Positions 41,020 to 57,170 of a stretch of DNA of 64,000 nucleotides are shown here, one piece after another. The first letter of the stretch is position 1; each line of letters begins with the position of its first letter. This DNA is from an uncultured Veillonellaceae bacterium (GTDB lineage Bacteria > Bacillota > Negativicutes > UBA1444), in the NCBI GenBank assembly GCA_964521625.1, contig CAZFSM010000012.1, positions 1,310-65,309 on the forward strand, given 5' to 3'. Made by a program: the position numbers and the translations under genes. Under the pieces are notes generated by a model that saw only the letters and a program-made list of their open reading frames with translations, was not told the origin of the DNA and did not search any database.

Positions 41020-41047
41020 CAAACAATAGACCCGAAAAAGCATAATA

Positions 41048-41093
41048 AAAGCGGGCTGAGGAAAACTTTTAAAGTTCTCACACAGCCCGCTTT
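41048..41093. terminator. bidirectional terminator between alr and the convergent GerMN gene
   Basis: 11 bp inverted repeat AAAGCGGGCTG...CAGCCCGCTTT. On the minus strand it is followed by TTTTATTATGCTTTTT. Confidence 0.6.
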
Positions 41094-41108
41094 GCATTTC
41101 TATGTGTT

Positions 41109-41681
41109 CTATTTGTTTTTGATAATCGCTGGCGAGCGGCTGAGCGGATCATATACATCGATATGGCCAAACAAAGTACTTACTTTTTTCCCTTCGACCA
41201 AAATCTGCACCCGCTCGATGTCGGGAAACTCTGTCAATGTGTTTACAATAGCCGCGACTGCCAGAATTTCGGTCGCCGATCCGCCAAAGCCACGTTTCAC
41301 CAGCTCCTCGGAAAAATCGACCACAGCCATCCGATCTCGGACAACTACGCTTTTCACCTTTGTCGCCTTGGGAACGACCGACACCAGGTCGGCGCTGCGC
41401 GGTCCTGCCGCCAGTTTTTCCATCGCCTGTTGCATCAGCTGGGGGCCAGCCTTGACCTGATGTACTTCCGCCACCAGGTATCGGGCATCATGTGTACCAA
41501 AATACACTTTTACCGGCACTGTTTCAGTTACCGGAACTTTGGGTGGTTCCACCGGTTTTTGTCCCGATGCGGCGCCATTATTGACTGGCGGCGTCTTGCC
41601 GCCGAGATCGGGGGAACAGCCCGTCACCACGAATAAAACCAAAGCGCACAAGAGAATTGTATACATCCGGCGCGTCATCAT
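41109..41681 (-). CDS. GerMN domain lipoprotein (sporulation/germination-associated)
   Basis: Lipobox VTGC with a proline-rich linker and a GerMN-like body (VKVYFGTHDARYLVAEVHQVKAG...). Confidence 0.6.
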   Translation of the reverse strand: MMTRRMYTILLCALVLFVVTGCSPDLGGKTPPVNNGAASGQKPVEPPKVPVTETVPVKVYFGTHDARYLVAEVHQVKAGPQLMQQAMEKLAAGPRSADLVSVVPKATKVKSVVVRDRMAVVDFSEELVKRGFGGSATEILAVAAIVNTLTEFPDIERVQILVEGKKVSTLFGHIDVYDPLSRSPAIIKNK

Positions 41682-42754
41682 TTTCCACCTCGTATTTTCG
41701 CGGCCTGGGCAAAGAATTGGTCAATCCCGGCTACGATTGCTACAGCCATCTTTTGCTGAAAAGCAGGAGAAGTCAACATTTGTTCTTCCTGCGGGTTGGA
41801 AATGAAGCCGATTTCCAAAAGTGCCGCCGGCATCCAGGTGTTTTTGACGACAAAGAAGTTGGCAGTCCGTACGCCAATATTATCCAAGCCGCCGCCGCGA
41901 ACCATTGCAGACTGGATACATTGGGCCAGCAGTGCATCAAAGGACGTCTTGGGATAATAATAGGTCGTGGTTCCTGTCAGTCCAGAATTCACCGATGAAT
42001 TGTGATGAATACTGACAAAGATATCCGCTTTCCGGTTATTGGCCACCATCGTTCTGACACCCAGTTCTTCGCGGTCCGAGGCCGAAGCAGGCGTCAGGTC
42101 AACGTCGCCCGGTCGGGTCAGAACCACCGTAGAACCGGCTTTTTCCAACAGCGCCTTCACTTGCACCGTCAAATCCCAGTTGACTTTCTTTTCGTAAGTT
42201 CTGCGTGGTCCGATCGCGCCGGGGTCGGTTCCGCCATGTCCCGGGTCAAGCACGATCAGTTTTCCCCGCAGGCCGGTCGAAAAATTCACATCTGTTACCG
42301 GCACTGTTTTTTCAATATCAACAACAATTCTGAACGGTCTTTTTGCTTTGGGATCTGCTTTCAACGTAAAGACCTTATACTGGTTTTCCGTCAGTTCAGC
42401 CGGCAATTCCAGCATCACATGCACAGTATCCTGGGTCGATTTTACAACGCTCATCGCCTTGACCACTGTCGTATCCGGCGAAGGAGCAATCGTCAATTTA
42501 TCAGCATTGGCGCCGCGCATAGTTAGAACGATGCGCCAGTTTGGTTTTGCTGTAATAAACTGATCCACCGTCACTGGCGCGCTGGTTTCCAGCACCAACC
42601 TGATCATCTGTGAACCAGTCACTGCATCAGCCGTTCGTCCCCAACGCATGCCGGTTATTGATACAATTGGATCGGCAGGAGCCGCTGAGGCAAGCCCCAC
42701 CGTCAAACTAAACCAGAGAAATAACAGCCAGCTCAGACAATAGCGCAAACGCAA
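41678..42754 (-). CDS. N-acetylmuramoyl-L-alanine amidase (Amidase_3) with an N-terminal AMIN-like domain
   Basis: Signal peptide and Amidase_3 catalytic region (IVLDPGHGGTDPGA...SIHHNS...EIGFISN). Confidence 0.85.
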   Translation of the reverse strand: MRLRYCLSWLLFLWFSLTVGLASAAPADPIVSITGMRWGRTADAVTGSQMIRLVLETSAPVTVDQFITAKPNWRIVLTMRGANADKLTIAPSPDTTVVKAMSVVKSTQDTVHVMLELPAELTENQYKVFTLKADPKAKRPFRIVVDIEKTVPVTDVNFSTGLRGKLIVLDPGHGGTDPGAIGPRRTYEKKVNWDLTVQVKALLEKAGSTVVLTRPGDVDLTPASASDREELGVRTMVANNRKADIFVSIHHNSSVNSGLTGTTTYYYPKTSFDALLAQCIQSAMVRGGGLDNIGVRTANFFVVKNTWMPAALLEIGFISNPQEEQMLTSPAFQQKMAVAIVAGIDQFFAQAAKIRGGK

Positions 42755-42795
42755 ACGGCTTCACCTCCTTTTTTCGGGAGACTTATTGAGATTTA

Positions 42796-44343
42796 TTATA
42801 TCACAAGCGTATGAATAGCAGCAGGAACCTGTTCTACCAGGTCCATCGCTGTCATGCCTACCGCCCGGCCTGCCGCAGCAAGATCGCCGGCCCGGCCATG
42901 CAGGTAGACGCCCAGTACGGCAGCGTCATGACTTGACAGGCCCTGTGCAATCAAAGCTGCAATCATCCCTGCCAGTACATCGCCAGTACCGCCTGTTGCC
43001 ATGCCAGGATTACCGCTGGGATTGACGTACAGTTCCCCATCGGGGAACGCCACCACGGTGCGGGACCCCTTCAATACGACAATGCTGTTCCACTCAGCAG
43101 CCGCCCGCCGTGCCGAGCCAAGCCGATCAGTCTGAATTTGCTTCACCGACAGTCCGGTCAACCTGGCCATTTCACCCGGATGCGGCGTCAGTATAGCCAA
43201 GCCGCCTGCGGCAGCCAAAATTTCGTTATGCCCGGCCAAAGCGTATAACGCATCGGCATCCAGCACCAACGGTCGGTCAATCGTCCGCACCAATTCCCGC
43301 ACCGTAGCCAAAGTTTCTTCATGCCGACCCAACCCGGGTCCAATCAGGACAACCGACGAACGAGCGGAAAAATCCTGAATCAGCTTCACTGCATCTGCAC
43401 CGAGACCGCCAGCCAAGGTTTCCGGCAATTCCAGCGTCATCGCCTCGGTCGTCTTCGTCTCCATCACCGTACGGATACTTTCCGGTACAGCAGTCGTGAC
43501 TAGTCCAGCGCCAGCCCGCAATGCGCCCTGCGCTGCCAGAAAGGCTGCTCCGCTAAGGCCCCGCGACCCAGCCACCGCCAGCACATGACCCATGTTTCCT
43601 TTGTGTGCATCCGCCTCCCGCCGCGGCATACGGCTCGCAACATACTCAGGCGTAATCAGCGTCTGACGGATCGTAGTTGCGGTCAATAATTCCCGGGGGA
43701 TGCCGATGGCTGCGACAACCACCTCGCCGGCGCAGGCTGCGCCGGGTTGCAGCAACAATCCCGGTTTGGGCAGACCAAAAGTGACAGTAGCGTTTGCCTG
43801 CACTGCCTTTTCACGGACCGCAGCCGTATCCACATCCACGCCGGAGGGAATGTCCACTGCCAGTATTTTTTTGCCGGAGCTATTCATCAATTCGATACTT
43901 TCCAGATAAATGGCGCTTAGTTCGCCATGCAAACCGGTTCCGGCCAGCGCATCAATCACAAGATCGGCAAAAGCAACGGCAATACGGGCTTTTTCCAGGC
44001 CACGCGGTTCCGTATGATCAAAACATTCAATTCCCATCCGCAACGCAGTTTCCAGATGAATTAGCGAATCGCCTTTGACGACTGTCCGATCCATCGCCAA
44101 AAACAGTTTAACCCGTGCCCCGTAGTTGTGCAACCAGCGGGCAGCGACAAAACCATCCCCGCCATTATTGCCGCGACCGCAGACTATGAAAACGATCTTG
44201 CCCCGCGGTTCGCCAAGCATGGCAACCGCCTTTTCGGCGACAGCCCGCCCGGCATTCTCCATCAGCACGATGCCCGGCAACCCAAACCATTCCATAGTAG
44301 ACTTGTCAATTTCCCGCATTTCTCGTCCAGTTGCGATTTTCAT
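42796..44343 (-). CDS. nnr: bifunctional NAD(P)H-hydrate epimerase / ADP-dependent dehydratase
   Basis: YjeF N-terminal domain (VCGRGNNGGDGFVAA) plus the C-terminal carbohydrate-kinase-like domain. Confidence 0.9.
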   Translation of the reverse strand: MKIATGREMREIDKSTMEWFGLPGIVLMENAGRAVAEKAVAMLGEPRGKIVFIVCGRGNNGGDGFVAARWLHNYGARVKLFLAMDRTVVKGDSLIHLETALRMGIECFDHTEPRGLEKARIAVAFADLVIDALAGTGLHGELSAIYLESIELMNSSGKKILAVDIPSGVDVDTAAVREKAVQANATVTFGLPKPGLLLQPGAACAGEVVVAAIGIPRELLTATTIRQTLITPEYVASRMPRREADAHKGNMGHVLAVAGSRGLSGAAFLAAQGALRAGAGLVTTAVPESIRTVMETKTTEAMTLELPETLAGGLGADAVKLIQDFSARSSVVLIGPGLGRHEETLATVRELVRTIDRPLVLDADALYALAGHNEILAAAGGLAILTPHPGEMARLTGLSVKQIQTDRLGSARRAAAEWNSIVVLKGSRTVVAFPDGELYVNPSGNPGMATGGTGDVLAGMIAALIAQGLSSHDAAVLGVYLHGRAGDLAAAGRAVGMTAMDLVEQVPAAIHTLVI

Positions 44344-44726
44344 GCCGGCTCACCTCTCCAAAGCAATACTTGGGCCGTTGCGAACTCCTGCGCATGCGAC
44401 AGCGAAACAAAGACCTGAGAAACGGCCAGTTTTTCGGCCAGCTGGCCAAATACCCCGGTCAAGGTCATGACCGGTTTGCCCTGCGCATCAGGCAACACTT
44501 CGATGTCCTGCCAGGTCCCGCCGCCGGCCAACCCTGTTCCCAGCGCTTTCATCACCGCTTCCTTGGCCGCGAACCGCGCTGCATAGGAGGCCGAATTTTG
44601 ACGTCCGCGACTGTCGCAGTATTCACGCTCCGCCGCGGTGAATATACGTTGCAAAAACAATGGGTTCTCAATCGCTTTTTTGATGCGATGAATTTCGATC
44701 AGATCAATGCCAATACCAACAACCAC
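44340..44726 (-). CDS. acpS: holo-[acyl-carrier-protein] synthase
   Basis: The true start is a GTG at 44726 (VVVGIGIDLIEIHRI) after GGGGGTGGG. The track ORF reads through upstream. Confidence 0.85.
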   Translation of the reverse strand: MVVGIGIDLIEIHRIKKAIENPLFLQRIFTAAEREYCDSRGRQNSASYAARFAAKEAVMKALGTGLAGGGTWQDIEVLPDAQGKPVMTLTGVFGQLAEKLAVSQVFVSLSHAQEFATAQVLLWRGEPA

Positions 44727-44742
44727 AGACCCACCCCCGGCT

Positions 44743-45540
44743 TCAAGCCAGAACGTATTTTTCGACCGCTGCCGCCACGCCATCCTCGGCATTGCCGAGT
44801 GTGACAAAATCCGCCGCCGCACGAACCTTGGCGTTTGCATTGCCCATAGCCACACCGACGCCGGCATATTCAATCATATCGAGATCATTCATCGAGTCGC
44901 CTATCGCCATAACTTCCTGTTGTCCAATCCCCAGCATTCCGGCCAGAAACGCCAGTGCCTGGCCTTTATTTACCCGGGCATCCACCATCTCCAGATAGCG
45001 CTTCTTGGACGACGCCAGATAAAGTCGGCCATTAAAACGAGTTGTCAATTCCGCAGCAATCCGGGCCAGCTCTTCCGGTTCACCCATGCTGAGCATTTTC
45101 GTCGGCGCCTCGTTCATGCAGTAAAACGCAGAGCCAAGCGGAATGGCCTCCACTTTGGCATAGTCGGCGTAAAACCGGGCGTTTTCATCCAACTCCGCAA
45201 CGTACAGTTGGTCATCGACATATTTTTGCAGATACCAGTTGCGTTCACAAAACAAATCCGCCAATCCCTGGGCCAATTCCGTGTCGATCGGACGATGGAA
45301 AACAGTTTCGCCAGACTGCAGCTGACGAATCAGTGCCCCGTTATATGTTATCATCGGCAGGTCCAGCTTTAGTTGCCGGGCAAATGGCAGCGCCGACTGA
45401 AACATCCGTCCGGTAGCAATAGTGACTGCCACGCCCGCCTGCATCGCCTTGCCGAGTGCATCGCAAGTACGAGGGCTTAACTGTTGCTGGTTATTCAGCA
45501 GCGTATCATCCAGATCGATTGCTATTAATTTAATCGCCAT
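44743..45540 (-). CDS. Cof-type HAD-IIB family hydrolase (sugar phosphatase)
   Basis: Probable start MAIKLIAIDLDDTLL (45540, after AGGAG); motif IV GDSMNDLDM. Confidence 0.8.
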   Translation of the reverse strand: MAIKLIAIDLDDTLLNNQQQLSPRTCDALGKAMQAGVAVTIATGRMFQSALPFARQLKLDLPMITYNGALIRQLQSGETVFHRPIDTELAQGLADLFCERNWYLQKYVDDQLYVAELDENARFYADYAKVEAIPLGSAFYCMNEAPTKMLSMGEPEELARIAAELTTRFNGRLYLASSKKRYLEMVDARVNKGQALAFLAGMLGIGQQEVMAIGDSMNDLDMIEYAGVGVAMGNANAKVRAAADFVTLGNAEDGVAAAVEKYVLA

Positions 45541-45575
45541 ATCTACTCCTATTATATCGGTGATTGCCACCAGTT

Positions 45576-46100
45576 TTATTTAGTTTCTTTCTGCTCCAGG
45601 CCCAACAGTTCCTGCTTGAGCGTCAGGCCGCCGCCAAATCCGGTCAGGCTGCCGTCCGATCCAATCACCCGATGGCAGGGAACCACAATCGGCGTCCGGT
45701 TCGCATGCATGGCGCCACCGACGGCCCGCGCCGCGCCCGATCGACCGACTGCCATTGCCACGCCGCCATAGGTCGCTACTTGTCCAGCAGGAATCGCCGC
45801 CGTAAACTGCAGCGCTTTCAAACGAAACTCGCTATAGCCGGACCAGTCGATTGGCACAGAAAACACGACCTGTTTGCCGCTGAAATAGTCCGCCAGTTCA
45901 GTGGTCAATGACTGTAACCAAGATTTTTGCAACGAATTCAGCGGCTCTTCCACCACTCCTGTCGTTGTCAGGTGCGTCAGTGCTTCCTGTTGCGTTGGAT
46001 AGGGAAAGGTCAATTCATATAATCCCTGCGCCGACCAAACCGAGGCCAGTATTCCACGCTTGATCTGAATCCAGACCAGTTTTTTCATCATTCGATTCAC
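45576..46100 (-). CDS. ogt: methylated-DNA--protein-cysteine methyltransferase
   Basis: Active site PCHRV and a C-terminal DNA-binding domain. Confidence 0.9.
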   Translation of the reverse strand: MNRMMKKLVWIQIKRGILASVWSAQGLYELTFPYPTQQEALTHLTTTGVVEEPLNSLQKSWLQSLTTELADYFSGKQVVFSVPIDWSGYSEFRLKALQFTAAIPAGQVATYGGVAMAVGRSGAARAVGGAMHANRTPIVVPCHRVIGSDGSLTGFGGGLTLKQELLGLEQKETK

Positions 46101-46891
46101 TCCTCCGGCAGATTGGCATTGGCCGCCTTCCAGGCTTCTTCACGGATCAGTTCCAGCACATCCCGCTTAATCGTCAAAAACTGTTCCGACAATTTCAGGT
46201 CGTAGGTGCGTTTCGTCGGCAAGTCAACTGCGATCCGGGCTTTGATCCGGCCGGGCCGGGCCGTCATGACATAAATAGTATCGCCGATGAACACGGCTTC
46301 CTCCACATCATGGGTGACAAACAAAATCGTCTTGTGAGACTCATCCCAGACCGACAGCAACAATTCCTGCATCACCGAACGGGTCTGCGCATCCAGGGCA
46401 CCAAACGGCTCATCCATCAGCAGCACTTCCGGATCGTTGGCCAACGCCCGGGCGATTGCCACCCGTTGCTTCATGCCGCCGGACAGCTTGCGGGGATAGG
46501 CTTTTTCAAACCCCTTCAGGCCGATCCGTTCAATGTAAAATTTCACTGCATCCTGTTGCTCCGTACGTGAACGCCCCGCAACATTCAGACCGAAGGCGAT
46601 ATTCTCTTCCACCGTCAGCCAGGGAAACAGCGTATACGCCTGAAACACCATGCCCCGGTCTTTGCCCGGTTCCCGGATTTCTTTACCGTCAAGCAGCACA
46701 CGCCCGCTCGAGGCTTCTTCCAGTCCGGCGATAATGCGCAGGATTGTCGATTTTCCGCAGCCAGACGGTCCCAAAATGGTGACAAATTCACTTTCGGCCA
46801 CACAAAAACTCGTGTTTTGCAAGGCGGTGACTGTGCCATTTTTTTCCGGAAATACTTTCGATACATCTTCAATACAAAGCTTGTTTTCCAT
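46097..46891 (-). CDS. ABC transporter ATP-binding protein (NitT/TauT: nitrate/sulfonate/bicarbonate family)
   Basis: The true start MENKLCIEDV at 46891 overlaps the permease stop as ATGA. Walker A GPSGCGKST, signature LSGGMKQR and Walker B LLMDEP. Confidence 0.9.
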   Translation of the reverse strand: MENKLCIEDVSKVFPEKNGTVTALQNTSFCVAESEFVTILGPSGCGKSTILRIIAGLEEASSGRVLLDGKEIREPGKDRGMVFQAYTLFPWLTVEENIAFGLNVAGRSRTEQQDAVKFYIERIGLKGFEKAYPRKLSGGMKQRVAIARALANDPEVLLMDEPFGALDAQTRSVMQELLLSVWDESHKTILFVTHDVEEAVFIGDTIYVMTARPGRIKARIAVDLPTKRTYDLKLSEQFLTIKRDVLELIREEAWKAANANLPEE

Positions 46892-47706
46892 CACGCGGCC
46901 CCTCCCTTGCCCATCCAGGGAAACAGCCGTCCATACAGCCATTTGAATACCAAATCGATAATGATGCCGATCACGCCAATCACCAGAATTCCCACGATGA
47001 TGTGGGCTGTTTTCAGGAATCGTTGCGACTGCATGATCATGTAACCCAGACCGGAACTGGCCGCCACAATCTCCGCCACCACCAGATAAGTCCAGGCCCA
47101 GCCGAACGTGATCCGCATTGTGTCCATGATTCCCGGCAGACTGGCCGGCAAAATGATCCGCCAAAATACACTTCGCTTAGAAACGCCCAGTGTATAAGAC
47201 GTGTCGATCAATTCCTGCGACACGTTTTTCGTCACATCCATCACCATCAGTGTCATCTGGAAAAAAGTGCCGAAGAAAATCACGGCAATCTTTTCCGTCT
47301 CGCCGATACCCAGCCAGAGAATGAACAGCGGAATAAAGGCCGAAGCGGGCATATAGCGGATAAAGCCGAGAAACGGTTCAAAAAAAGCTTCAAAAACTTT
47401 CAGACCGCCCATCATGATCCCCAGCGGCACCCCAATGACCGCCGCCATCATAAACCCTGCCGTGACCCGCACCACACTGGCAATAATATCCTGGGTCAAA
47501 TCAAACTCAGCAAACAATAATATCGCCGCTTTGACGATAGCATCCGGCGCCGGCAAAAATAGTGGCGGCACATATCCGCCATACGTCAAAAACGACCAGA
47601 TCACAAATAGAAGCAAAAATGCAGCCGCCGCCAATGTCCAGTACAAAGGCTTGGCAATATCCGCTTTTGCAGTAGCCCATTTCCTCATCGCCAATAAAAT
47701 CACCAT
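46891..47706 (-). CDS. ABC transporter permease (NitT/TauT family)
   Basis: Six TM helices and the EAA-like loop of BPD_transp_1. Confidence 0.85.
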   Translation of the reverse strand: MVILLAMRKWATAKADIAKPLYWTLAAAAFLLLFVIWSFLTYGGYVPPLFLPAPDAIVKAAILLFAEFDLTQDIIASVVRVTAGFMMAAVIGVPLGIMMGGLKVFEAFFEPFLGFIRYMPASAFIPLFILWLGIGETEKIAVIFFGTFFQMTLMVMDVTKNVSQELIDTSYTLGVSKRSVFWRIILPASLPGIMDTMRITFGWAWTYLVVAEIVAASSGLGYMIMQSQRFLKTAHIIVGILVIGVIGIIIDLVFKWLYGRLFPWMGKGGAA

Positions 47707-47719
47707 CCATCCAGAATCA

Positions 47720-49741
47720 TCACAGTTTCCAAGCCAATAGCAGTTCGGTTCCTTCGCTGTTGTAAATCATCCGGTGTGACAGCGACAACATCATCGGCAG
47801 TCCCCGCCCCATCGAAGCGTCTTCTCCGAATGAGAACATATCCTCTGGTTGAGAACGCAACCGCCGCAGAATTGCATTTCCTGCAAAACCAATTCTTGAC
47901 GTCTTTATTCTGACTACAAACAACTGACCCCGTTTGTTGAACCGCACTTGCGCCTTGTGCTGACGTGGATACCCGTCCCTGCATTCCAGCGCATTGACAA
48001 GAGCTTCATTCACGGCCACCTCTTGCATGGAGTGCTGCTGCCCGGTCACTTCTGCGATAATGTCTGCGACTTCCCTCTTTAAGCGTTGGTAATCGCCGTA
48101 GCTGATGAAATGGATAATGTAAGGCCAGCTTTTTCGACAGGGGGAAGCGCTTAGCAATGCTTTGACGTTGATACACAGTGCCGTCGCATCATCACGGCAT
48201 TCACCGGATTGAGCAAGAGATTTCAGCATTTGCACCATGTGCGTGAAACTTTCCAACGGAGCAATTTCTTTTTTCCCAACGATGTCGGAAAGGCCATCGG
48301 TCATGAAATAAAAGGAGTCCCCCGCTGAAAATTGCAAGGTATGCATTTCAAAAAATTCATTCTCACGGATGCTCAAAAACAAACCCTGTTTAGCTATACG
48401 CCCTTTATACGCAGCCGTCGATACCCAGAACTCCGGTATTCCGGCGCAAGACCAACGCAACTCTCCTGTTTGAATATCAAGCTCGAAAACCAATGCCCCC
48501 GCAAAGGAGCTGTCTTCAAAATATTCACATGTACGCCGGTTCAACCACCGCATCGTTTCTGCCAGCGGCAGATCGAGCTCGTTCACTTCCCTTAGTAGCA
48601 CATGAAGCGCCGCGGTATGGAGGGATGTACCCAGACCATGACCGCAGGCATCAACCAAAAACCCCCGCAGCACCTGTCCGCGATAACGCCAGTCTAAATA
48701 ATACAAGTCTCCACCGACGTAGGTCAAGGGATGATACATGATGGAAATATCAATCTGTTCCGAGGCCTGTGGATTGGCCAATAACGCCATCTGTACCCGC
48801 GTTGCCATCTGCGCATCCTGCTCCATTTGCTCTTCACGCCGCACTTCCTCGGACACATCACGCAAGACCATCATGAACAGTTGCCGATTGCGATAAAGGA
48901 CACGTTGTACGGATCTTTCGACGCTTACGGCGAAACCGTTTTTATGCATAAGCAACCTGCGTTGCAAAGGAACACTTTGAAGCGATTCCTCATCATCAGG
49001 ATTGGCTTCGTTCAGTTCTGTTTCATTGAGGAGCAAATTGTGCAAGATCAGTTCGGTATCCCGGAGCAAATCATAGCCAAAGCGCTCGGTAAAGCGCGCA
49101 TTAGCCTCGACGATCTTGCCGCTTAACGGTTCCACGAGCACGATGGCTTCGGGTGATTGCTCCATCACCGCCCGATATCTTGCTTCGCTTTCCTCCAAGG
49201 TTCTCATCGTCTGCAAAACTTCCTGTTCGGCCTTTCGCACGATGAAAGTCGGGAAAAAGAAGAGGCTGCCCGAAATCAACAGGCCCATCAAGAAAAAACC
49301 GGTCAGAAGCAAAGCCGTCGTATAAGTAATACTACCCAGTCCATATTCGAACACCACATAACCATAGAGTCGATTGTTGTAACGGATCGGTGTCTTCTCT
49401 TCAAACTGCAGTCCGAATGGTGAAGAAAATCGTTTTTCATAAATTAGCCTGGACTGCTCGTCGTAGATGCGGAACGCATCGACGCCTTCCTTATGACTGA
49501 TGCCGCCGGCAATTTCGACGAATTTTGGTACATCGTAATACCACAATTCCAAGTTTGACTTCACGGTCGGTTCCAGCGATTTTGCCAGAACTTCGCCGCG
49601 AATGGCAGCCTGATTCTTCTTATCCGCCAAACTCATATAAAAGTAAGTCGCAGGCAAAACAAAGCAGACGATACACCCTACTGAAATTGCAAGCAGGGCC
49701 ATTCGTCTGGCGAAACTGCGGGAAAAATTGATTGACTGCAT
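47720..49741 (-). CDS. transmembrane signalling protein: 2 TM + extracytoplasmic domain / PAS / PP2C (SpoIIE-type) phosphatase / RsbW-like HATPase serine kinase
   Basis: 673 aa. TM1 at residues about 14-34, an extracytoplasmic domain of roughly 110 aa, then TM2. PAS region (AVMEQSPEAIVLVEP), SpoIIE region (GGDLYYLDWRY...VDACGHG) and a C-terminal GHKL region (VNEALVNALECRDG...). Confidence 0.75.
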   Translation of the reverse strand: MQSINFSRSFARRMALLAISVGCIVCFVLPATYFYMSLADKKNQAAIRGEVLAKSLEPTVKSNLELWYYDVPKFVEIAGGISHKEGVDAFRIYDEQSRLIYEKRFSSPFGLQFEEKTPIRYNNRLYGYVVFEYGLGSITYTTALLLTGFFLMGLLISGSLFFFPTFIVRKAEQEVLQTMRTLEESEARYRAVMEQSPEAIVLVEPLSGKIVEANARFTERFGYDLLRDTELILHNLLLNETELNEANPDDEESLQSVPLQRRLLMHKNGFAVSVERSVQRVLYRNRQLFMMVLRDVSEEVRREEQMEQDAQMATRVQMALLANPQASEQIDISIMYHPLTYVGGDLYYLDWRYRGQVLRGFLVDACGHGLGTSLHTAALHVLLREVNELDLPLAETMRWLNRRTCEYFEDSSFAGALVFELDIQTGELRWSCAGIPEFWVSTAAYKGRIAKQGLFLSIRENEFFEMHTLQFSAGDSFYFMTDGLSDIVGKKEIAPLESFTHMVQMLKSLAQSGECRDDATALCINVKALLSASPCRKSWPYIIHFISYGDYQRLKREVADIIAEVTGQQHSMQEVAVNEALVNALECRDGYPRQHKAQVRFNKRGQLFVVRIKTSRIGFAGNAILRRLRSQPEDMFSFGEDASMGRGLPMMLSLSHRMIYNSEGTELLLAWKL

Positions 49742-49753
49742 CAGATCGACCGC

Positions 49754-50614
49754 CTATTCGGCGACAGGGACCGCACCCATCGCTGCAATAATTGCTTTTC
49801 CGTCTTTGGATTTCACGTACTCAACGAAATGTTTTGCTCGATCAGTAAGGATTCCTTTATAGGCAAACGACAGTTCTTTTGAAAAAGGATAGGTACCGTT
49901 GGCGATGTTTGCCGGGTCAGGTGAAACGCTATTGATCCGTAGCGGTTTCAATGTATTTTTGTGCTGCAGTGTTTCAGTCGTGTCAGTAAGACCGACTGAC
50001 CAGGCAGTATTTAATATCGCCCGGGGCACTTCCGCATCTTTGTAAGCGATTTGCCAGCGCTTTTCATCGATGGAACGGAAAATCGCGTCCTTCCAGCCAG
50101 GAATCAGCTGATATAGAACCTGATTCGAACTGTCATGTTTTTCCCGGATGATTACAAAGATAGGTTTTCCGTTGCTCCAGGTGTTCTTTATTCCCTGATG
50201 TATTTTCAGTAGCTCTTCCGCTGTCATATTAGAATCCGAGACGGCGACAGGAGTAGCAAATACGATGCCAACTTTCGCGTAAGGAATGGTCTTAAGCCCT
50301 TTTTCAATCTCACTGGGCGTAAGGGGGCGCGAAATCAATCCCAGTTCGAGAGCTCCGGAGTCGAGTGCAATCGTAGCTCCGTCCGTTCCGATGCTGGGCG
50401 GGATTTCGACGGCGAGACCAAATTTTGTTTGATACGCTTCAGCAAGTTTCATTGTGACAGGCAAATTGGTTCCCGAACCGGCAACCACGAAACGGTCGGT
50501 TGAAAAGGTTCTTGCGGCGGATGGCTGCGCAGGTTTCGACTGGTTGGTTGTGCAGCCGGCGAGGCTAATCAGCAAAAAGGCCAAGCTGCAAATCGTTATC
50601 CTTCGCCCGAACAT
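49754..50614 (-). CDS. PstS-like (PBP_like_2) periplasmic binding lipoprotein
   Basis: Lipobox LAGC. The AGSGTNL and ISRPLTPSE motifs are characteristic of the phosphate-binding-protein fold. Confidence 0.65.
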   Translation of the reverse strand: MFGRRITICSLAFLLISLAGCTTNQSKPAQPSAARTFSTDRFVVAGSGTNLPVTMKLAEAYQTKFGLAVEIPPSIGTDGATIALDSGALELGLISRPLTPSEIEKGLKTIPYAKVGIVFATPVAVSDSNMTAEELLKIHQGIKNTWSNGKPIFVIIREKHDSSNQVLYQLIPGWKDAIFRSIDEKRWQIAYKDAEVPRAILNTAWSVGLTDTTETLQHKNTLKPLRINSVSPDPANIANGTYPFSKELSFAYKGILTDRAKHFVEYVKSKDGKAIIAAMGAVPVAE

Positions 50615-50728
50615 AATTTCCCCTTCTTCCTTTACATAATCCGGTTAGGAAGTATCTGGATGTTTACAGCAACATTCTACCATTATGCGCACTGCGTATC
50701 CAGCAAGTTTAAAATATGACAGACAAAA

Positions 50729-50779
50729 TAAAAAAGGACTGTGAAAACGGCATCAGACGCCTCTTCCACAGCCCCTCCG
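50729..50779 (-). terminator. intrinsic terminator or attenuator between the substrate-binding gene and the PstS-like gene
   Basis: On the minus strand GGGCTGTG...CACAGTCC hairpin followed by TTTTTTATTTTG. Confidence 0.45.
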
Positions 50780-50791
50780 CTGTTTATCGTC

Positions 50792-51811
50792 TTATTTTAT
50801 CTTGTTGATAAAAGTGCTGTCAAATACTTTGGAAGTATCTGGAACTTTGTCGAGGATTTTTTGTCCGACATAGAACTCGCCGGCAATCTTGGCCACATCC
50901 TGCAAGGCGCCTGGTTTTTCCGCAGTACCAAAAAGAGCGACATTGTCCTTTAGATTATAAAACTGGATGGTTTTATTCCCTTCAAGTGTTTCTTCCGGTT
51001 TTTCCTTCAGTACGGTCGCCATAATTTTGGCGGCTTCTGCCGGATTTTTCTGGATAAACTCAGTTGCTTCGGCCATAGCGGCAACCAGCGCCTGCACTTT
51101 GTCCGGGCTGTTCTTGACGAAATCTTCATGCAGGGCCAGGACGTCGGCGATCAAAGCCGGAGTATCTTTAGTGGTGGACAGAATAATGTTGCCTGCTGCG
51201 GCAGCTTTGGTCAGATGTGGTTCCCAGGTCACGGCGGCAGGAACTTTTCCGGCCATCAATGCGCTGGCAGCTTCACTGGCTTTCATTTCAACCGCTTTGA
51301 CATCCGCATCTTTCATGCCGGCGTTCTTCAAGAGTGTAGTCAGGTACAGGTGGGAAGCAGAGCCTTTGTGATAGGCTATTTCTTTTCCTTTGAGATCTGC
51401 AATCGATTTGATGCCGCTGGCTTTGGTGACAAGCAATCCATCAGCGCCGGCTGAAGCGTCAAACGCCCAGACGAACTTGAGTGGCACACCCTGTCCGAGA
51501 GCCGCGATCGAAACGTCTACCGAGGCGGCCATCCCTTGAATTTTTTTGGCGACAATCGCCTGTTTGCGAGCGCCGACATCTTCGATCGACTGGATTTGCA
51601 CGTCGAGCCCTTTAGCCTTGAACATACCTTTTTCAGCGGCAATGAACAATGCGCCATAGCCATTCCATGGAGTATAGGCAATAATAATCGGTTCTGCCTT
51701 GGCGGCCGGCTGAGCCGGTTGTGCAGGTTTGGCCGGTTCGGTTTTGCCGCAGCCTGCCACAACTACGACCAGCATCAGGATTGCCAATACAAGAGCTATT
51801 TTTTTGTTCAC
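50792..51811 (-). CDS. ABC transporter substrate-binding lipoprotein (NMT1/SsuA/TauA family)
   Basis: Lipobox VAGC and an NMT1-like periplasmic binding fold (IAYTPWNGYGALFIA...). Confidence 0.85.
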   Translation of the reverse strand: MNKKIALVLAILMLVVVVAGCGKTEPAKPAQPAQPAAKAEPIIIAYTPWNGYGALFIAAEKGMFKAKGLDVQIQSIEDVGARKQAIVAKKIQGMAASVDVSIAALGQGVPLKFVWAFDASAGADGLLVTKASGIKSIADLKGKEIAYHKGSASHLYLTTLLKNAGMKDADVKAVEMKASEAASALMAGKVPAAVTWEPHLTKAAAAGNIILSTTKDTPALIADVLALHEDFVKNSPDKVQALVAAMAEATEFIQKNPAEAAKIMATVLKEKPEETLEGNKTIQFYNLKDNVALFGTAEKPGALQDVAKIAGEFYVGQKILDKVPDTSKVFDSTFINKIK

Positions 51812-51872
51812 GTTCTCACCTTTTCTTTCTTTATTGTACTAAAGCACAGAATTATTAATTCGCGTTTATTTT

Positions 51873-52997
51873 TTATTCTCCTGCTGTTGCTGAAACTTTT
51901 TCCAGAACATCGATCAGTGCGGAATTCTGTTCATGGGTGCCGAGAGAAATCCGCAGGAACGTCGGATAGCCCCAACCGGCGCCGGCCCGAATAATGATGC
52001 CTGCGTCCCGGGCGGCATCCGCCAGTGGCGCTGCCTGCCTGCCTGTGTCGACAAACACGAAATTGGTCTGTGACGGAAACACCCGCCAGCCAAGGTTGGT
52101 TAGGTGCTGGCTGAGCCCTGCCCGCTCCGCCGCATTCCGCTCCGCCGAAACCCGGACAAATTCCTGGTCGTCCAGCGCCGCCATCGCACCAAACTGGGCC
52201 AGCGTATTCACGTTGAACAAGGGGCGGACCCGTTGCACCAAAGCAACAATATCCGGACTGGCGATCGCATAGCCGACGCGCATGCCGGCCAATCCGTAGA
52301 TTTTGGAAAAAGTCCGGATGACAGCCACATTGGGGTACTCCGCCAGCAAAGCTAGGCCGGAGATGAAATCGGGCGTCTCGACATAATCAAAATAGGCCTC
52401 ATCCAATCCGACAATGATATGGGGAGGAACGGCCGCCAGAAATTCTCTCAGTTCATTGCCCGCCACCACGACACCGGTGGGATTGTTGGGATTGCAGAGG
52501 AAAATGATCTTGGTCCGTGCCGTGACTGCGGCCAGCATCGCCGGCAAATCAGCCCGTAAATCATCGCTACGAACCGGCACTTTTACCGGAACGCCGTCCA
52601 TGATGGTCGTGGCATTGGCGTACTGGCCGAAAGTCGGCCATGGCATAATCACTTCATCGCCAGGTGATACAAACGCATTGACCAACAGAGCGATCGCCTC
52701 GTCGCCACCGTTGCCGATATATACATGGTCCAGAGATACGCTATGCTTGTCGGCAATTTTCTGCCGCAGTTCCTTCGCCTCCATGTCGTGGTAGAGATGA
52801 ACCTGACATGCGGCTTGCTGCATTGCCCGCACCGCCAGCGGCGACGGTCCATAGGGGCTTTCGTTGAAAGACAGTTTTGCGACTTCATCGCGGGCAAGCA
52901 ATTTGCAAAGTTCAACCGGCGTTCGATCCGGCCAACCTGGCATATAGGGCTTGATTGTCTGCACCACCGGGCGCGGCGTTGTCTGTTTCTTATTCAC
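51873..52997 (-). CDS. histidinol-phosphate aminotransferase family (class II PLP-dependent aminotransferase, HisC/CobD-like)
   Basis: 374 aa. LSFNESPYGPSP and the PLP lysine region TFSKIYGLAGMRVGY. Confidence 0.8.
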   Translation of the reverse strand: MNKKQTTPRPVVQTIKPYMPGWPDRTPVELCKLLARDEVAKLSFNESPYGPSPLAVRAMQQAACQVHLYHDMEAKELRQKIADKHSVSLDHVYIGNGGDEAIALLVNAFVSPGDEVIMPWPTFGQYANATTIMDGVPVKVPVRSDDLRADLPAMLAAVTARTKIIFLCNPNNPTGVVVAGNELREFLAAVPPHIIVGLDEAYFDYVETPDFISGLALLAEYPNVAVIRTFSKIYGLAGMRVGYAIASPDIVALVQRVRPLFNVNTLAQFGAMAALDDQEFVRVSAERNAAERAGLSQHLTNLGWRVFPSQTNFVFVDTGRQAAPLADAARDAGIIIRAGAGWGYPTFLRISLGTHEQNSALIDVLEKVSATAGE

Positions 52998-53049
52998 GGC
53001 ACTATTCCTCCATCAGAAAAAATTACGTTAAAATTGTACCATATTAAAG

Positions 53050-53096
53050 AGGCTGCGGGAAAACTTGTCGCCAAGTTTCCCGCAGCCTCTTTGCTG
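53050..53096 (-). terminator. hairpin terminator downstream of the rubredoxin gene
   Basis: Perfect 17 bp inverted repeat AAAGAGGCTGCGGGAAA...TTTCCCGCAGCCTCTTT. Confidence 0.55.
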
Positions 53097-53109
53097 TTCT
53101 GATGATCAT

Positions 53110-53268
53110 TTATTCAGCTTCGAATTGATCCTTGTTCACGCCGCAAACCGGGCAAACCCAGTCTTCCGAAACATTTTCCCAGCCAGTGCCGGGCGCGACC
53201 CCATGATCAGGATCTCCTTCGGCTGGATCATACACATAGCCACATACTGTACAGACATACTTTTGCAT
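53110..53268 (-). CDS. rubredoxin
   Basis: [15 protein letters not shown]...WVCPVCGV: two CxxCG knuckles. The probable start at 53268 follows AAAGGAG. Confidence 0.9.
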
Positions 53269-53334
53269 TTTCATCGCTCCTTTTCTTTTCATCGCTTTGC
53301 CATGAGTCATGCGACCCATTATGGTTAAGGCCGC

Positions 53335-54093
53335 CTAGCGACTGGAACCTCCGCCGCCGCCGGAACCGCCGCCAAACCCTCCCCCGCCGGAACTGCCGCC
53401 GCCGCGGCCAGAAAAGGCTAACATAAAGATCAGTTGGGTGAAAAAACCGCCCAGGACAAACCAATCAATCAAGAGGAACAGCGCGATTCCCGCCCCAATG
53501 GCAATCTTCAGCCACCAGGGCAACGAGTCCCAGCCGGAACTTACGTCGCGTTGCCGCGGACTGGACCGGGGATCAGCCTTTATCTGCAGTTTGTATTCGT
53601 TGGTCACTTCCTGAAACACGCTTAGGTAGCCATTCATCAATGCCGCATTGAAATCGCCGGCATCAATCGCCGGTCGCATGGATTCGTCCTGGATCCGCCC
53701 GGTTTTGGCATCCGGCAACGCGCCTTCTAGCCCATAGCCGACTTCAATTCGCGTTTTTTTCTCCGCCACTGCCAGTAAGATGAGGATACCGTTGTTTTTC
53801 TTGCGGTCGCCAATCCCCCATTTGCGAAACAGGGCCAAACTGTAGTCTTCGATTGCTTCGCCTTCCAGCGAAGGAATCGTCACCACCGCAATCTGCGCTC
53901 CGGTGCGGGACTGCAGTTCAGTACTGAGCCGGTTGATCCGGCTCTCGGTCTCCTTGGACAGCACATTGGCATAGTCCTGGGCATAAATATCACGGGTCGG
54001 TACCGGCGGAATCTTGGGCTCGGCTCCGGCCGTCGCGGCAAACAACAATACGCAGCCGGCAATGGCAACCCATGCGGTTATGCGTTTCAACAT
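53335..54093 (-). CDS. TPM-domain (TLP18.3/Psb32/MOLO-1 phosphatase-like) protein with a C-terminal TM helix and Gly-rich tail
   Basis: WGIGDRKKNNGILILLAVAEKKTRIEVGYGLEG followed by a TM helix and a GGGSSGGGGFGGGSGGGGGS tail. Its start overlaps the lemA stop. Confidence 0.8.
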   Translation of the reverse strand: MLKRITAWVAIAGCVLLFAATAGAEPKIPPVPTRDIYAQDYANVLSKETESRINRLSTELQSRTGAQIAVVTIPSLEGEAIEDYSLALFRKWGIGDRKKNNGILILLAVAEKKTRIEVGYGLEGALPDAKTGRIQDESMRPAIDAGDFNAALMNGYLSVFQEVTNEYKLQIKADPRSSPRQRDVSSGWDSLPWWLKIAIGAGIALFLLIDWFVLGGFFTQLIFMLAFSGRGGGSSGGGGFGGGSGGGGGSSR

Positions 54094-54656
54094 CAGAATT
54101 TAACGGCAGGAACCTGTTTCGCGCCCTCTTCCGCCCGGAAGTATTCTTTCGCCGAGAAACCGAACATGCCGGCGATGATGCTGGTTGGGAAAGTTTTGAT
54201 CCGGGTGTTGAAGGACTGGACTGCTTGGTTGTAGTCACGGCGGGCGACCGAAATCCGGTTTTCCGTGCCGGACAACTCATCCATCAGGCCGATAAAAGTT
54301 TTGTCCGATTTCAGCTGCGGGTAATTCTCCACTACCACCAGCAATCGGGATAATGCGCCACTAAGTTCACCATTGGCTTCGCCTCTGGCAGCCGGACCCT
54401 GAGCTCCGGCCAGTTTGGCCCGGGCATTGGTCACGGAGTCGATTACGCTTTTTTCCTGAGCAGCAAACCCTTTGACCGTATTCACCAGATTCGGAATCAG
54501 GTCGGCCCGGCGTTGCAGCATATTGTCAATCTGGCTCCATTTGGCATTTACCTGTTCCTGGTCGGCGACCAATCCATTATACGAAGACATCAGCGTCATA
54601 CCGAACAGCCCTACGACAGCTACGATGGCAATCAGAACAATTGTTGATTTACTCAT
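54093..54656 (-). CDS. LemA family protein
   Basis: N-terminal TM helix and LemA core (YNGLVADQEQVNAKWSQIDNMLQRRADLIPNLV). Confidence 0.85.
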   Translation of the reverse strand: MSKSTIVLIAIVAVVGLFGMTLMSSYNGLVADQEQVNAKWSQIDNMLQRRADLIPNLVNTVKGFAAQEKSVIDSVTNARAKLAGAQGPAARGEANGELSGALSRLLVVVENYPQLKSDKTFIGLMDELSGTENRISVARRDYNQAVQSFNTRIKTFPTSIIAGMFGFSAKEYFRAEEGAKQVPAVKF

Positions 54657-54701
54657 TGCATTCTTCCTTTCATTTTACCAATTTATCTTTTTCTCAATCC
54701 A

Positions 54702-55304
54702 CTAATCAGCCACAAACCGGTGAATTACAAAGGACAGCACAAACAGAATCCCCACCAGACGGTGTACATATCGCAGTTTGGTCAACTTGGGCATCCAGCG
54801 GACAAACAGCCCCGAAACGGCAACCATCACCAGAATGGCTGCTGCCATCAGTCCGGTGTCCACTGCGTAGTTAAAATTACCTGCTGCCCAGATCTGCCAG
54901 ATGACATAGCCATGCAGCAACACGACGGAAAACACCAACACTCCCAACAGTGGATGCATTAGACGCAAAACCGTGATCCAGTATTTTACTATGGAATCTA
55001 GCCAAACCGGCATGGGCGCATGCATTTTCCGCAGCGTCACAAAAACATCACGCACCCCGTAGTACAGTGTTGCAACAAAGCCTAGAAAAAACGCGGCTTT
55101 GCCAATGCTTTCGCCCAATTTGCCAATACGTTCGAACGGCAACATACTCTCAATCCAGTGAATGCGTTGATCACTCAGCACAATAACAACTACCAGCAAG
55201 ATCAGAGTCGGAGCAAAGAAATAAAATCTTTGGTGGGTTGCCTTTGCCAGATTCTCCAGCCAAGTCGCCAAGCTTTCACCCCCGTACTCTCTTATTGTAC
55301 TCAA
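54702..55304 (-). CDS. polytopic membrane protein with conserved histidines (DUF4405-like, possible heme b binding)
   Basis: 200 aa with 4-5 TM helices and His residues within the helices (HWIE, HPLLG, LLHGYV, VHRLVG, IHRF). Confidence 0.35.
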   Translation of the reverse strand: MSTIREYGGESLATWLENLAKATHQRFYFFAPTLILLVVVIVLSDQRIHWIESMLPFERIGKLGESIGKAAFFLGFVATLYYGVRDVFVTLRKMHAPMPVWLDSIVKYWITVLRLMHPLLGVLVFSVVLLHGYVIWQIWAAGNFNYAVDTGLMAAAILVMVAVSGLFVRWMPKLTKLRYVHRLVGILFVLSFVIHRFVAD

Positions 55305-55334
55305 TTCACAGCGGTTTGACCAGCAGCTGCTGCG

Positions 55335-57170
55335 TCACTCGTTCACCGGATGAAAAAACTGCCTGACCGCCAGCGCTGCCCTGCTGTTCATGCCCGGCGC
55401 AGCAGCCAGTTCCTCCACCGATGCCGCACGCATCTTTTCCAGCGCGCCGAAATGCTTCCACAACGCTTGCCGACGCTTGGCGCCAATTCCTTTGATGTGA
55501 TCCAGCACCGAAACCAGATTTCGTTTGGCCCGCAATTTCCGATGATACGTCACGGCGAAGCGGTGGGCTTCGTCTCGAATTTGCTGCATCAATCGCAACG
55601 CTTCGGAGTGGCGGGGCAAAATCAAGGGTTCGCTGATATTTTCGCGGAAAATGTGTTCAAACTCCTTGGCCAGGCCGATTACTGGAATGTCATTCAAGCC
55701 CACTCCCCGGATTACTTCCAGCGCTGAAGACAGCTGCCCTTTGCCGCCGTCGATTACGATCAGGTCCGGCAAAGGTTCGGCCGCCTCCCGATAACGCCGC
55801 AACGTCACTTCCTGCATCGAGGCGAAATCATCAGGGCTGCCTTCAACGGTCATGAGTTTAAAACGGCGATATTCGGCTTTATCAGGCTCGCCGTCGGTGA
55901 ACACAACCATCGAGGCCACCGTTTCAGCTCCTTGAATGTGGGAAATATCGAAACACTCGATACGCAGCGGCAGCCGGTCCAGCGCCAACCGTTCCAGCAA
56001 TTCCTGCAAAGCCACCGTGCGCTTGCCCAGTTTGGCCGCATCCCGTTCACAGCGCTGCCTGAGAACTTCGGCTGCATTGTCGGCTGCCAGTTCAATCAAA
56101 TCCCGTTTGCTGCCCCGCTGCGGCGTCAGCAAATTCACAACCGCGCCTTTTCGCTCCGTCAGCCAGGCGGTGAGCAGTTCAGTTTCCGGCAACATAACTG
56201 GCGTCAATATTTCCCGGGCAATAAAAGTTGCCTCATTATAATATTGCTTAACAAAGGCAGCTAAAACTTCACTATCCGTATCGCTTTCGCCGCCAGACAG
56301 CATAAACCGGTCCCGGCCCACCATCTTGCCGCTACGGATAAAGAACACCTGCACGCAGGCCTGGGCGCCCAGTCGGGCCAACCCCAATACATCCTGATCG
56401 CCGGCGCCTGTAACGATGTTTTGTTTTTCCATCACTAGCCGCACCGCCGCCAGTTGATCCCGCAGCCTGCCAGCAAGTTCGAACTTCAGCGTATCGGAAG
56501 CCACCAGCATCCGGCGTTTCAAATCCTTTTCCACATCGCCCGATCGCCCTTCCAGAAACAGGCAGACCGTTTTTACCATCGCCATATAGGTCTCCTGGTC
56601 TATCAAACCGGCGCAAGGGGCCATACACCGGTTGATGTGGTATTCCAGACAGGGCCGCGTGGCATCCATGCTGCGGCAGCTGCGCAAGGGAAATAATTTT
56701 TTCAACAACGCAATCGTTTCATGCATCGCACCGGCGCTGGCATAGGGTCCATAATACTTCGCACCGTCTTTTTCCAACCGTCGCGTCGCATACACGCGCG
56801 GGTACGCTTCATTCAGGGTCACCTTGATGAACGGATAGGTCTTGTCATCACGTAGGCTGATATTGTAACGTGGGCGATGTTTTTTGATCAGATTGCATTC
56901 CAGAATCAGCGCTTCCATCTCGGTTGCCGTCACAATGGTTTCAAAGCTGACGATCCTCGCCACTAAAGCCTCTGTCTTTGGACTGAGGCCGCGTTGCTGG
57001 AAATAAGAACGAACCCGGTTTTTCAGATTAACGGCCTTGCCGACATAAATAATCTTGCCAGCCTGGTCCCGCATCAAATAAACTCCGGGTTTATCCGGCA
57101 GCAGGGCGACCTGCGCCGTTAATTCAGCTTTAGCAGCCAGGGAATCGCGATGATCTTCGCAGCTAGTCAT
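55335..57170 (-). CDS. uvrC: excinuclease ABC subunit C
   Basis: GIY-YIG domain ([20 protein letters not shown]), UvrBC interaction domain, and a C-terminal RNaseH-like plus HhH2 region. Confidence 0.95.

Follow-up and report, generated by a model that had tools for sequence, protein, structure and literature searches.

A two-gene signalling cassette inserted into the spacer of a NitT/TauT-type transporter operon in an uncultured Veillonellaceae bacterium

Do two signalling genes that lie in the middle of a transporter operon work together with the transporter, or are they there by accident? This question is raised by a 64,000-nucleotide stretch of DNA from an uncultured Veillonellaceae bacterium (GenBank assembly GCA_964521625.1, contig CAZFSM010000012.1, positions 1,310 to 65,309), referred to here as the window. 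Between positions 51811 and 45576 the window carries six genes, all on the minus strand, which encode in order a substrate-binding lipoprotein, a second lipoprotein of the PBP_like_2 (PstS-fold) type, a 673-amino-acid (aa) membrane sensor, an ABC permease, an ABC ATPase and Ogt. A list of open reading frames (ORFs) placed all six at the positions given in the first-pass annotation of this DNA, and confirmed both the 13-nucleotide (nt) gap between the sensor and permease genes and the ATGA overlap between the permease and ATPase genes. The same annotation had interpreted the second lipoprotein and the sensor, embedded between the binding protein and the permease of one transporter, as a transport-coupled or trigger-transporter signalling unit. 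The comparisons described below point elsewhere. We consider it likely that the two genes form a self-contained signalling cassette, which was inserted into the spacer of an ordinary NitT/TauT operon and functions independently of the transporter.

The operon was found in uninterrupted form, with the binding-protein gene followed by the permease and ATPase genes, in nine contigs (L008-L016). Two of these, L014 and L016, have identical gene coordinates and were counted as one, so that the nine contigs represent eight distinct syntenic relatives. At these empty sites the spacing between the binding-protein and permease genes is approximately 110 nt. Alignment of the DNA located the breakpoints at window positions 50724 and 47718, and about 3.0 kb stands in the window in place of about 30 nt of empty-site sequence. 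The inserted cassette (47720-50723, minus strand) consists of a promoter-like region, the PBP_like_2 lipoprotein gene and the sensor gene. An independent Logan assembly of the same strain (L017) was 100% identical to the window over 8.9 kb and had the same gene order. A further contig, L018, was colinear with the window over 12.4 kb at about 81% DNA identity, and contained the same two genes inserted at the same site. Because L017 and L018 share the gene order, the arrangement is not an assembly artefact, and the insertion is real.

The converse comparison, starting from the lipoprotein-sensor pair, gave a consistent picture. Among 26 pair-bearing loci that were checked, representing about 20 distinct contexts, NitT/TauT genes stood beside the pair only in the window, L017 and L018; none of the approximately 18 other distinct contexts contained such genes. 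The pair is thus not co-conserved with the ABC genes, since the operon lacks the pair in eight relatives and the pair lacks NitT/TauT neighbours in about 18 contexts. The first-pass annotation had itself given missing co-conservation as grounds for refuting the interpretation as a transport-coupled unit, which accordingly loses its footing. The embedding of the pair in the operon is probably an evolutionary accident.

The source of the cassette could be traced by comparing its different locations. Cassettes with 90-92% DNA identity were found in two other, unrelated contexts (L004 and L006), and the cassette thus sits in at least three unrelated contexts. In L004, which is the same as L021, an MFS gene and a PAS-GGDEF gene lie upstream of the cassette. 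L006 belongs to a Negativicutes metagenome-assembled genome (MAG), and was one of two MAG contigs, the other being L007, obtained in a scan of genome contigs. Homology of L004 and L006 to the window, and to each other, was confined to the cassette itself, from 50710 to 47720 in the window. In L018 the L004/L006-type sequence continues for another 35-50 nt or so past each of the ends at which the cassette stops in the window. These donor-type ends indicate that the copy at the ABC site derives from an L004/L006-like locus, and that short segments were subsequently deleted from both junctions in the window lineage. The right junction of L018 lies within the sequence GGATGGATGG; the empty ABC site contains this sequence too, as does the DNA 3′ of the L006 cassette. 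The 3 kb contains no ORF for a transposase or integrase, and neither terminal (inverted) repeats nor a target-site duplication were found at the junctions. The cassette appears to have entered by short-homology (illegitimate) recombination, to judge from the junction sequences. Between the window and L018 the cassettes were 88-89% identical, as against 75-85% for the flanking genes, and identities of 88-92% were general between contexts. The difference suggests either a cassette younger than the neighbouring DNA or lateral spread.

Two further observations concern recombination at these loci. Just 3′ of the cassette in L006 (L006:5028-5498, minus strand) lies the end of a convergent gene, which codes for the same type of PAS-PP2C-GHKL module as is found in the sensor (hidden Markov model E 5.7e-44). 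The two family members are therefore arranged tail to tail, which could favour recombination between paralogous output modules. The identity of the empty-site relatives to the window (41000-58600) is mosaic: L010 was 79% identical to the left of the insertion site and 86.5% to the right, and for L012 the figures were 90.6% over uvrA/uvrC and about 79% in the remainder. These mosaic flanks suggest homologous recombination between lineages.

A consensus scan revealed a promoter-like site belonging to the cassette (50674-50702, minus strand), composed of TGGATA, 17 nt and TG-n-TAGAAT. The window, L018, L004 and L006 share this conserved stretch despite their unrelated upstream DNA, and it may well serve as the promoter of the cassette. 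The distance from the stop codon of the sensor gene to the ATG of the permease gene is 13 nt in the window and 45 nt in L018. Nothing resembling a terminator lies between the sensor and permease genes in the window, and for this reason the permease and ATPase genes are predicted, most likely, to be co-transcribed now with the cassette.

What the two genes do together is best approached from the input domain of the sensor. This domain (residues 1-175; 49217-49741, minus strand) consists of a transmembrane helix, an extracytoplasmic mini-PDC/PAS-like domain of about 100 aa and a second transmembrane helix, and is matched by no Pfam or NCBIfam model. Hydrophobic stretches cover residues 13-36 and 140-166. 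An AlphaFold2 (AF2) model of the N-terminal 184 residues had a predicted local distance difference test score (pLDDT) of 91.8, with a helix at 6-62, a helix and four strands at 67-134, and a helix at 136-183. The closest folds were the WalK ectodomain (including a WalK-YycH model), the periplasmic domain of the LapD-type protein CdgS9, and the sensor domain of a Clostridium perfringens histidine kinase, all of them weak matches with template modelling scores (TM-scores) of 0.4-0.6 and 9-14% identity. By analogy with two of these structural matches, the ectodomain may act by binding a partner protein.

When sensor residues 1-175 were compared with 1.84 billion representative sequences, 146 representative clusters were found to carry the domain at the N-terminus. 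Pfam scanning of 81 members identified the outputs behind it as histidine kinases (49), GGDEF (24), EAL (9), HD-GYP (7) and SpoIIE (1), the last being the window protein itself. A lipoprotein gene lies directly 5′ of the sensor gene in every ortholog context, namely L001, L002/L003, L004, L006, L007, L018 and L022; the orthologs in L001, L022 and L007 have about 65% amino acid identity. A profile search with the lipoprotein subfamily yielded 25 metagenome loci. Downstream DNA was long enough for the comparison at 17 of these, and at every one of the 17 the lipoprotein gene is followed, in the same orientation, by a gene that opens with the input domain and continues into HisKA or HisKA_3 kinases, GGDEF plus HD-GYP, PAS-GGDEF, or the PP2C module. 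For example, L019/L020 encode a lipoprotein 52% identical to that of the window, followed by a GGDEF plus HD-GYP protein which is 33% identical to the sensor throughout the first 175 residues (E 5e-34). The suggestion in the first-pass annotation that the PstS-like lipoprotein is a co-sensor thus gains considerably from these data, and the conserved gene pairing strongly supports the lipoprotein as the putative extracytoplasmic co-sensor of the membrane sensor. One ortholog lineage, represented by two independent assemblies (L002:1125-3156 and L003:1107-3138), has an intact PAS-PP2C-GHKL part behind an input domain that is spread over three reading frames, and this input domain appears to be frameshifted or pseudogenised.

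The lipoprotein itself (286 aa; 49754-50614, minus strand) has an LAGC lipobox and matches PBP_like_2 (PF12849, E 6.5e-21). The nearest solved structures are the PstS proteins 4gd5 (E 2.8e-13) and 1twy. Against the NCBIfam model TIGR02136 it scored 75 bits, far below the cut-off of 206.6. Motifs that are invariant in the subfamily are AGSGTNLP, SIG(S/T)DGA, SRPLT, HDSSN and KRW. The subfamily thus keeps the GSGT loop and the SR arginine, and the other two loops read SIG(S/T)DGA and HDSSN, as against GSSAG and GSGT in PstS 4gd5; we take these loop residues of PstS to be its phosphate-binding residues. In none of the loci inspected do pstC-, pstA- or pstB-type genes adjoin the lipoprotein gene. 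From the fold, one might guess that the ligand is a small molecule of the oxyanion type.

The remainder of the sensor (gene 47720-49741, minus strand) comprises a PAS domain (residues 183-305; 48827-49195; TIGR00229, sensory_box, E 1.5e-13; PAS_8, E 4.1e-09), a SpoIIE/RsbU-type PP2C domain (residues ~335-528; 48158-48739; PF07228, E 2.6e-22, with the SpoIIE match at residues 361-526) and a GHKL domain of RsbW/SpoIIAB fold (residues 535-673; 47723-48139), all on the minus strand. The last was recognised through a match to HATPase_c_2 (PF13581) at residues 564-671 which, at 30.0 bits, is just above the cut-off of 27.4. Pfam and NCBIfam thus give PBP_like_2, PAS, SpoIIE and HATPase_c_2, the same domains as had been assigned from the letters of the sequence. 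The AF2 model of the C-terminal domain had a pLDDT of 86.5, and its 14 best Foldseek matches in the PDB were all SpoIIAB, RsbW or UsfX (target-normalised TM-score 0.58-0.77, probability 1.00). A profile of the same domain gave no significant match to PDB sequences.

The PAS-PP2C-GHKL architecture was found in at least 120 protein clusters, and the residue counts that follow refer to the 120 that were listed. The module of about 490 aa (residues ~170 to 673) shares 52-60% identity with the C-terminal parts of 114 of these clusters, the other six being closer orthologs. Named members come from Negativicutes and Sporomusaceae, and their N-terminal inputs are varied, including dCache_1, 4HB_MCP, GAF, multiple PAS, PocR, ABC_sub_bind (PF04392), SBP_bac_3 and REC. 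This is an ordinary, much-expanded, lineage-specific output family, in which only a handful of members have the present input domain. Contigs often encode more than one member (for example P0023 and P0035, P0075 and P0082, P0103 and P0104); within the 64-kb window, tblastn detected no second copy of either the sensor or the lipoprotein. A stand-alone paralog, P0116 (L046:7611-11458), lies immediately after two ORFs of the same orientation, one encoding only PAS and the other only SpoIIE, and looks like a fragmented or tandemly duplicated family member rather than a true minimal protein.

The PP2C motifs GGD345, D364-x-x-GHG and D517-D518 were invariant in all 120 listed clusters and TD482G was present in 118, so the catalytic residues of the phosphatase are, by alignment, intact. 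In the C-terminal domain the N-box residues E579 and N583 and the G2 motif MGRGxPMM were likewise invariant. At the G1 motif, all 120 have (T/S)614-S-R-x-G-F in place of 'DxGxG', and the G1-box aspartate is therefore absent, which makes canonical ATP binding and kinase activity of the RsbW-fold domain doubtful. The first-pass annotation had described the sensor as a fusion of two opposing activities, phosphatase and kinase. The PP2C and RsbW-like domains are indeed fused. Such fusions are not unusual, as Rv1364c, SypE and the 120 or more clusters of this family show, and the kinase half of the description is not established, given the missing aspartate. The nearest solved structure by sequence was Rv1364c (3ke6), a marginal match with E 0.006.

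These features suggest a possible order of events. The PBP_like_2 lipoprotein would bind a small ligand in the periplasm, and the ligand-loaded lipoprotein would then dock on the mini-PDC/PAS-like ectodomain of the sensor; docking is proposed because the gene pairing is strict across swapped outputs. From there the signal could travel along the second transmembrane helix and a helical linker to the PAS domain, and on to a dimer of PP2C domains. A coiled-coil linker mechanism has been described for phosphatases with PAS, GAF or REC domains joined to a PPM domain (PMC12143880), and by comparison with RsbU and RsbP a linker-controlled mechanism may also operate here. The PP2C domain would dephosphorylate a phosphoprotein encoded elsewhere, most likely a partner-switching protein of the STAS type. 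The C-terminal RsbW-fold domain would more likely be a pseudokinase that binds the partner or regulates the PP2C domain than a canonical kinase.

A broader reading takes these elements together, and we hold it tentatively, as one that may equally turn out to be wrong in some part. The lipoprotein and the domain with its two transmembrane helices and mini-PDC could be a widespread, undescribed and obligately paired input module that is independent of transporters. This module would have been plugged into histidine kinases, GGDEF cyclases, HD-GYP phosphodiesterases and, in this clade only, a PP2C phosphatase. The Negativicutes family of PAS-PP2C-pseudo-RsbW proteins would presumably converge on one partner-switching target, and the cassette would hop between loci of close relatives by short-homology recombination.

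Several points weigh against the proposal of an independently functioning cassette. The insertion, with intact ORFs, persists in two lineages that have diverged by about 19% in DNA, and a later deletion of about 33 nt in the window lineage narrowed the gap between the sensor and permease genes to 13 nt. Retention with intact ORFs, together with the tightened junction, makes a selected regulatory link to the transporter possible. Promoter function and co-transcription are predicted at the level of consensus sequences. The register of the G1 box was set by eye against SpoIIAB from sequence and secondary structure, and commands moderate confidence. Finally, no STAS-like ORF was detected in the 64-kb window by tblastn with SpoIIAA and RsbV sequences, which is a weak test, no sigma factor gene was found there, and no STAS or sigma factor gene was found near P0116; the target of the output is therefore a guess. 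The persistence, the shortened junction and the lack of a terminator after the sensor gene would all fit a pair that is integrated with the NitT/TauT transporter, sensing its substrate or activity, or sharing with it a PstS-like protein that serves both. We nevertheless regard such integration as improbable. It has to be set against the eight relatives whose operon lacks the pair, the 18 or so other contexts of the pair and the cassettes of about 90% identity in two unrelated loci. Moreover, the operon already has a cognate binding protein of its own, of the NMT1 type, and the lipoprotein subfamily pairs with sensors of many outputs and never with permeases. Closer to the favoured explanation stands the idea that the cassette is functional and its position accidental, the only consequence being a polar effect in which the permease and ATPase genes have been rewired to the cassette promoter and to read-through of the terminator. 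All the evidence for insertion applies equally to this idea, as do the conserved promoter-like region and the lack of a terminator-like site between the sensor and permease genes; the insertion is, furthermore, patchy among lineages of similar divergence, with mosaic flanks such as those of L010 (79% versus 86.5%). It is largely compatible with the insertion of an independent cassette and differs only in denying a selected benefit, and as a separate account we think it unlikely.

Two other explanations concern the lipoprotein and the DNA itself. The PBP_like_2 match, the PstS structures nearest to it, the N-terminal GSGT loop and the SR arginine might be taken to mean that the lipoprotein is a true PstS-type phosphate transport protein, whose adjacency to a sensor gene is incidental. 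We judge this very improbable in view of the low TIGR02136 score, the lack of adjoining pst permease and ATPase genes, the subfamily's own invariant motifs in place of PstS loops, and the pairing with the sensor domain in 17 of 17 loci. That the context of the cassette varies among close relatives could in principle reflect an assembly chimera or a transposon-borne element. Two further assemblies share the identical junction site, and microhomology, GGATGGATGG, is found at the junction in place of any transposase, integrase, terminal inverted repeat or target-site duplication, which leaves an origin of this kind scarcely credible. Insertion of a self-contained signalling cassette thus remains the explanation that we favour.

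The resident operon is otherwise unremarkable. Its first gene (50792-51811, minus strand) encodes an NMT1/SsuA-type substrate-binding lipoprotein with a VAGC lipobox (Pfam NMT1, E 1.9e-33, and NMT1_2), which scored 154.9 bits against SsuA_fam (TIGR01728; cut-off 163.5). The permease (46891-47706, minus strand) is TauC/SsuC/SaoP-like (BPD_transp_1, PF00528, E 1.5e-28; NF007545, E 1.7e-46), and the ATPase (46097-46894, minus strand) is SaoA/TauB-like (ABC_tran, PF00005, E 1.5e-36; NF040729, 261.7 bits). By Pfam and NCBIfam the three-gene set of a NitT/TauT-type importer, with binding protein, TauC/SsuC permease and TauB/SsuB ATPase, is therefore complete, every equivalog score being below its cut-off. 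The ATPase gene starts with the ATG at 46894, within the ATGA overlap, and encodes 265 aa; a longer ORF of 355 aa (46097-47164, starting with TTG at 47164) was rejected as a spurious 5′ extension running over the permease gene. The ogt gene (45576-46100, minus strand) follows.

Downstream of the binding-protein gene lies a predicted intrinsic terminator or attenuator (50725-50778, minus strand), which had already been noticed in the first-pass annotation and proved to be real. Its hairpin (50778-50732) has a folding energy of -28.5 kcal/mol, with z = -5.2 relative to shuffled sequences, and is followed by a U-run. Three of the empty-site relatives, L008, L010 and L012, share the conserved hairpin, and since these have no insertion, the terminator or attenuator belongs to the binding-protein gene and is resident DNA. 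Nothing in the whole window matched an Rfam family, and the hairpin is therefore no riboswitch or attenuator of a known kind.

Synteny in this region extends over the genes for UvrC, LemA, TPM, rubredoxin, an aminotransferase, the binding protein, permease and ATPase, Ogt, HAD, AcpS, YjeF and an amidase, and the binding proteins of the syntenic relatives are 84-93% identical to that of the window. A gene for a leucine-rich-repeat protein of about 400 aa lies between uvrC and lemA in L008, L009 and L012, and is missing from the corresponding part of the window (54657-55335). At that site the window has only an ORF for a 200-aa membrane protein (54702-55304), and L014 has neither.

Sensors that depend on a periplasmic substrate-binding protein (SBP) have been reviewed (PMC8050422), and include LuxP/LuxQ, TorT/TorS, XylFII/LytS and PstS/CtpL. 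These systems and the pair in the window have in common a periplasmic SBP that is encoded beside, or acts on, a receptor with two transmembrane helices, and that serves, or in the window would serve, signalling rather than transport. The window pair differs in several respects. Its SBP is a PBP_like_2 (PstS-fold) lipoprotein, a fold for which the review lists only PstS-CtpL. Its receptor has a very small mini-PDC ectodomain with no Pfam model. In place of a kinase, chemoreceptor or cyclase, the pair has a PP2C phosphatase as its output, a type that the review does not list. Small periplasmic PAS/PDC-like domains that signal through a partner protein are also known from WalK/YycH-YycI and LapD/LapG; these offer an analogy only to the window ectodomain, and their partner proteins are unrelated to SBPs.

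On the output side, a parallel is offered by Rv1364c (MursiF, PDB 3ke6) of Mycobacterium tuberculosis, which has PAS, PP2C and an anti-sigma-type GHKL domain in the same order in one polypeptide. Loss of its kinase activity has been reported (Sachdeva 2008, as cited in PMC12344097), and parallels the degenerate G1 box of the window protein. Rv1364c is, however, cytoplasmic and has its own STAS domain, whereas the window protein is anchored in the membrane, combines extracytoplasmic input with a partner lipoprotein, and contains no STAS domain. SypE of Vibrio fischeri, which is composed of an RsbW-like kinase, REC and PP2C and acts on the STAS protein SypA (PMC3610818, PMC10120452), resembles the window protein in combining RsbW-type and PP2C domains in one regulator. 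Compared by architecture only, it differs in its reversed domain order, its REC input and a STAS partner encoded in the same locus. RsbU and RsbP of Bacillus subtilis (PMC12143880) likewise have a SpoIIE/RsbU-type PP2C domain after a sensory domain and a helical linker; unlike theirs, the input of the window protein is extracytoplasmic and partnered by a lipoprotein. The input domain of the window protein shows the same exchange among outputs as in the linker-controlled PPM model (PMC12143880), with HD-GYP in addition. In the open-access literature we found no description of the lipoprotein-sensor pair or of the Negativicutes PP2C family.

The results show that the embedding of genes in an operon need not mean functional coupling, and remove an inference that was tempting but wrong. 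They also provide a clean and datable case of a signalling cassette in an operon spacer, for which the empty sites, a donor-like locus and microhomology junctions are all at hand. The PstS-fold lipoprotein and its unannotated receptor domain constitute a testable two-protein input module, whose pairing survives the exchange of outputs among four signalling chemistries and would extend SBP-dependent sensing to a PP2C phosphatase. As an experimental lead, the locus points to the large paralogous family of PAS-PP2C-RsbW-fold proteins in Negativicutes, and identification of a single ligand would annotate more than 100 families of sensors.

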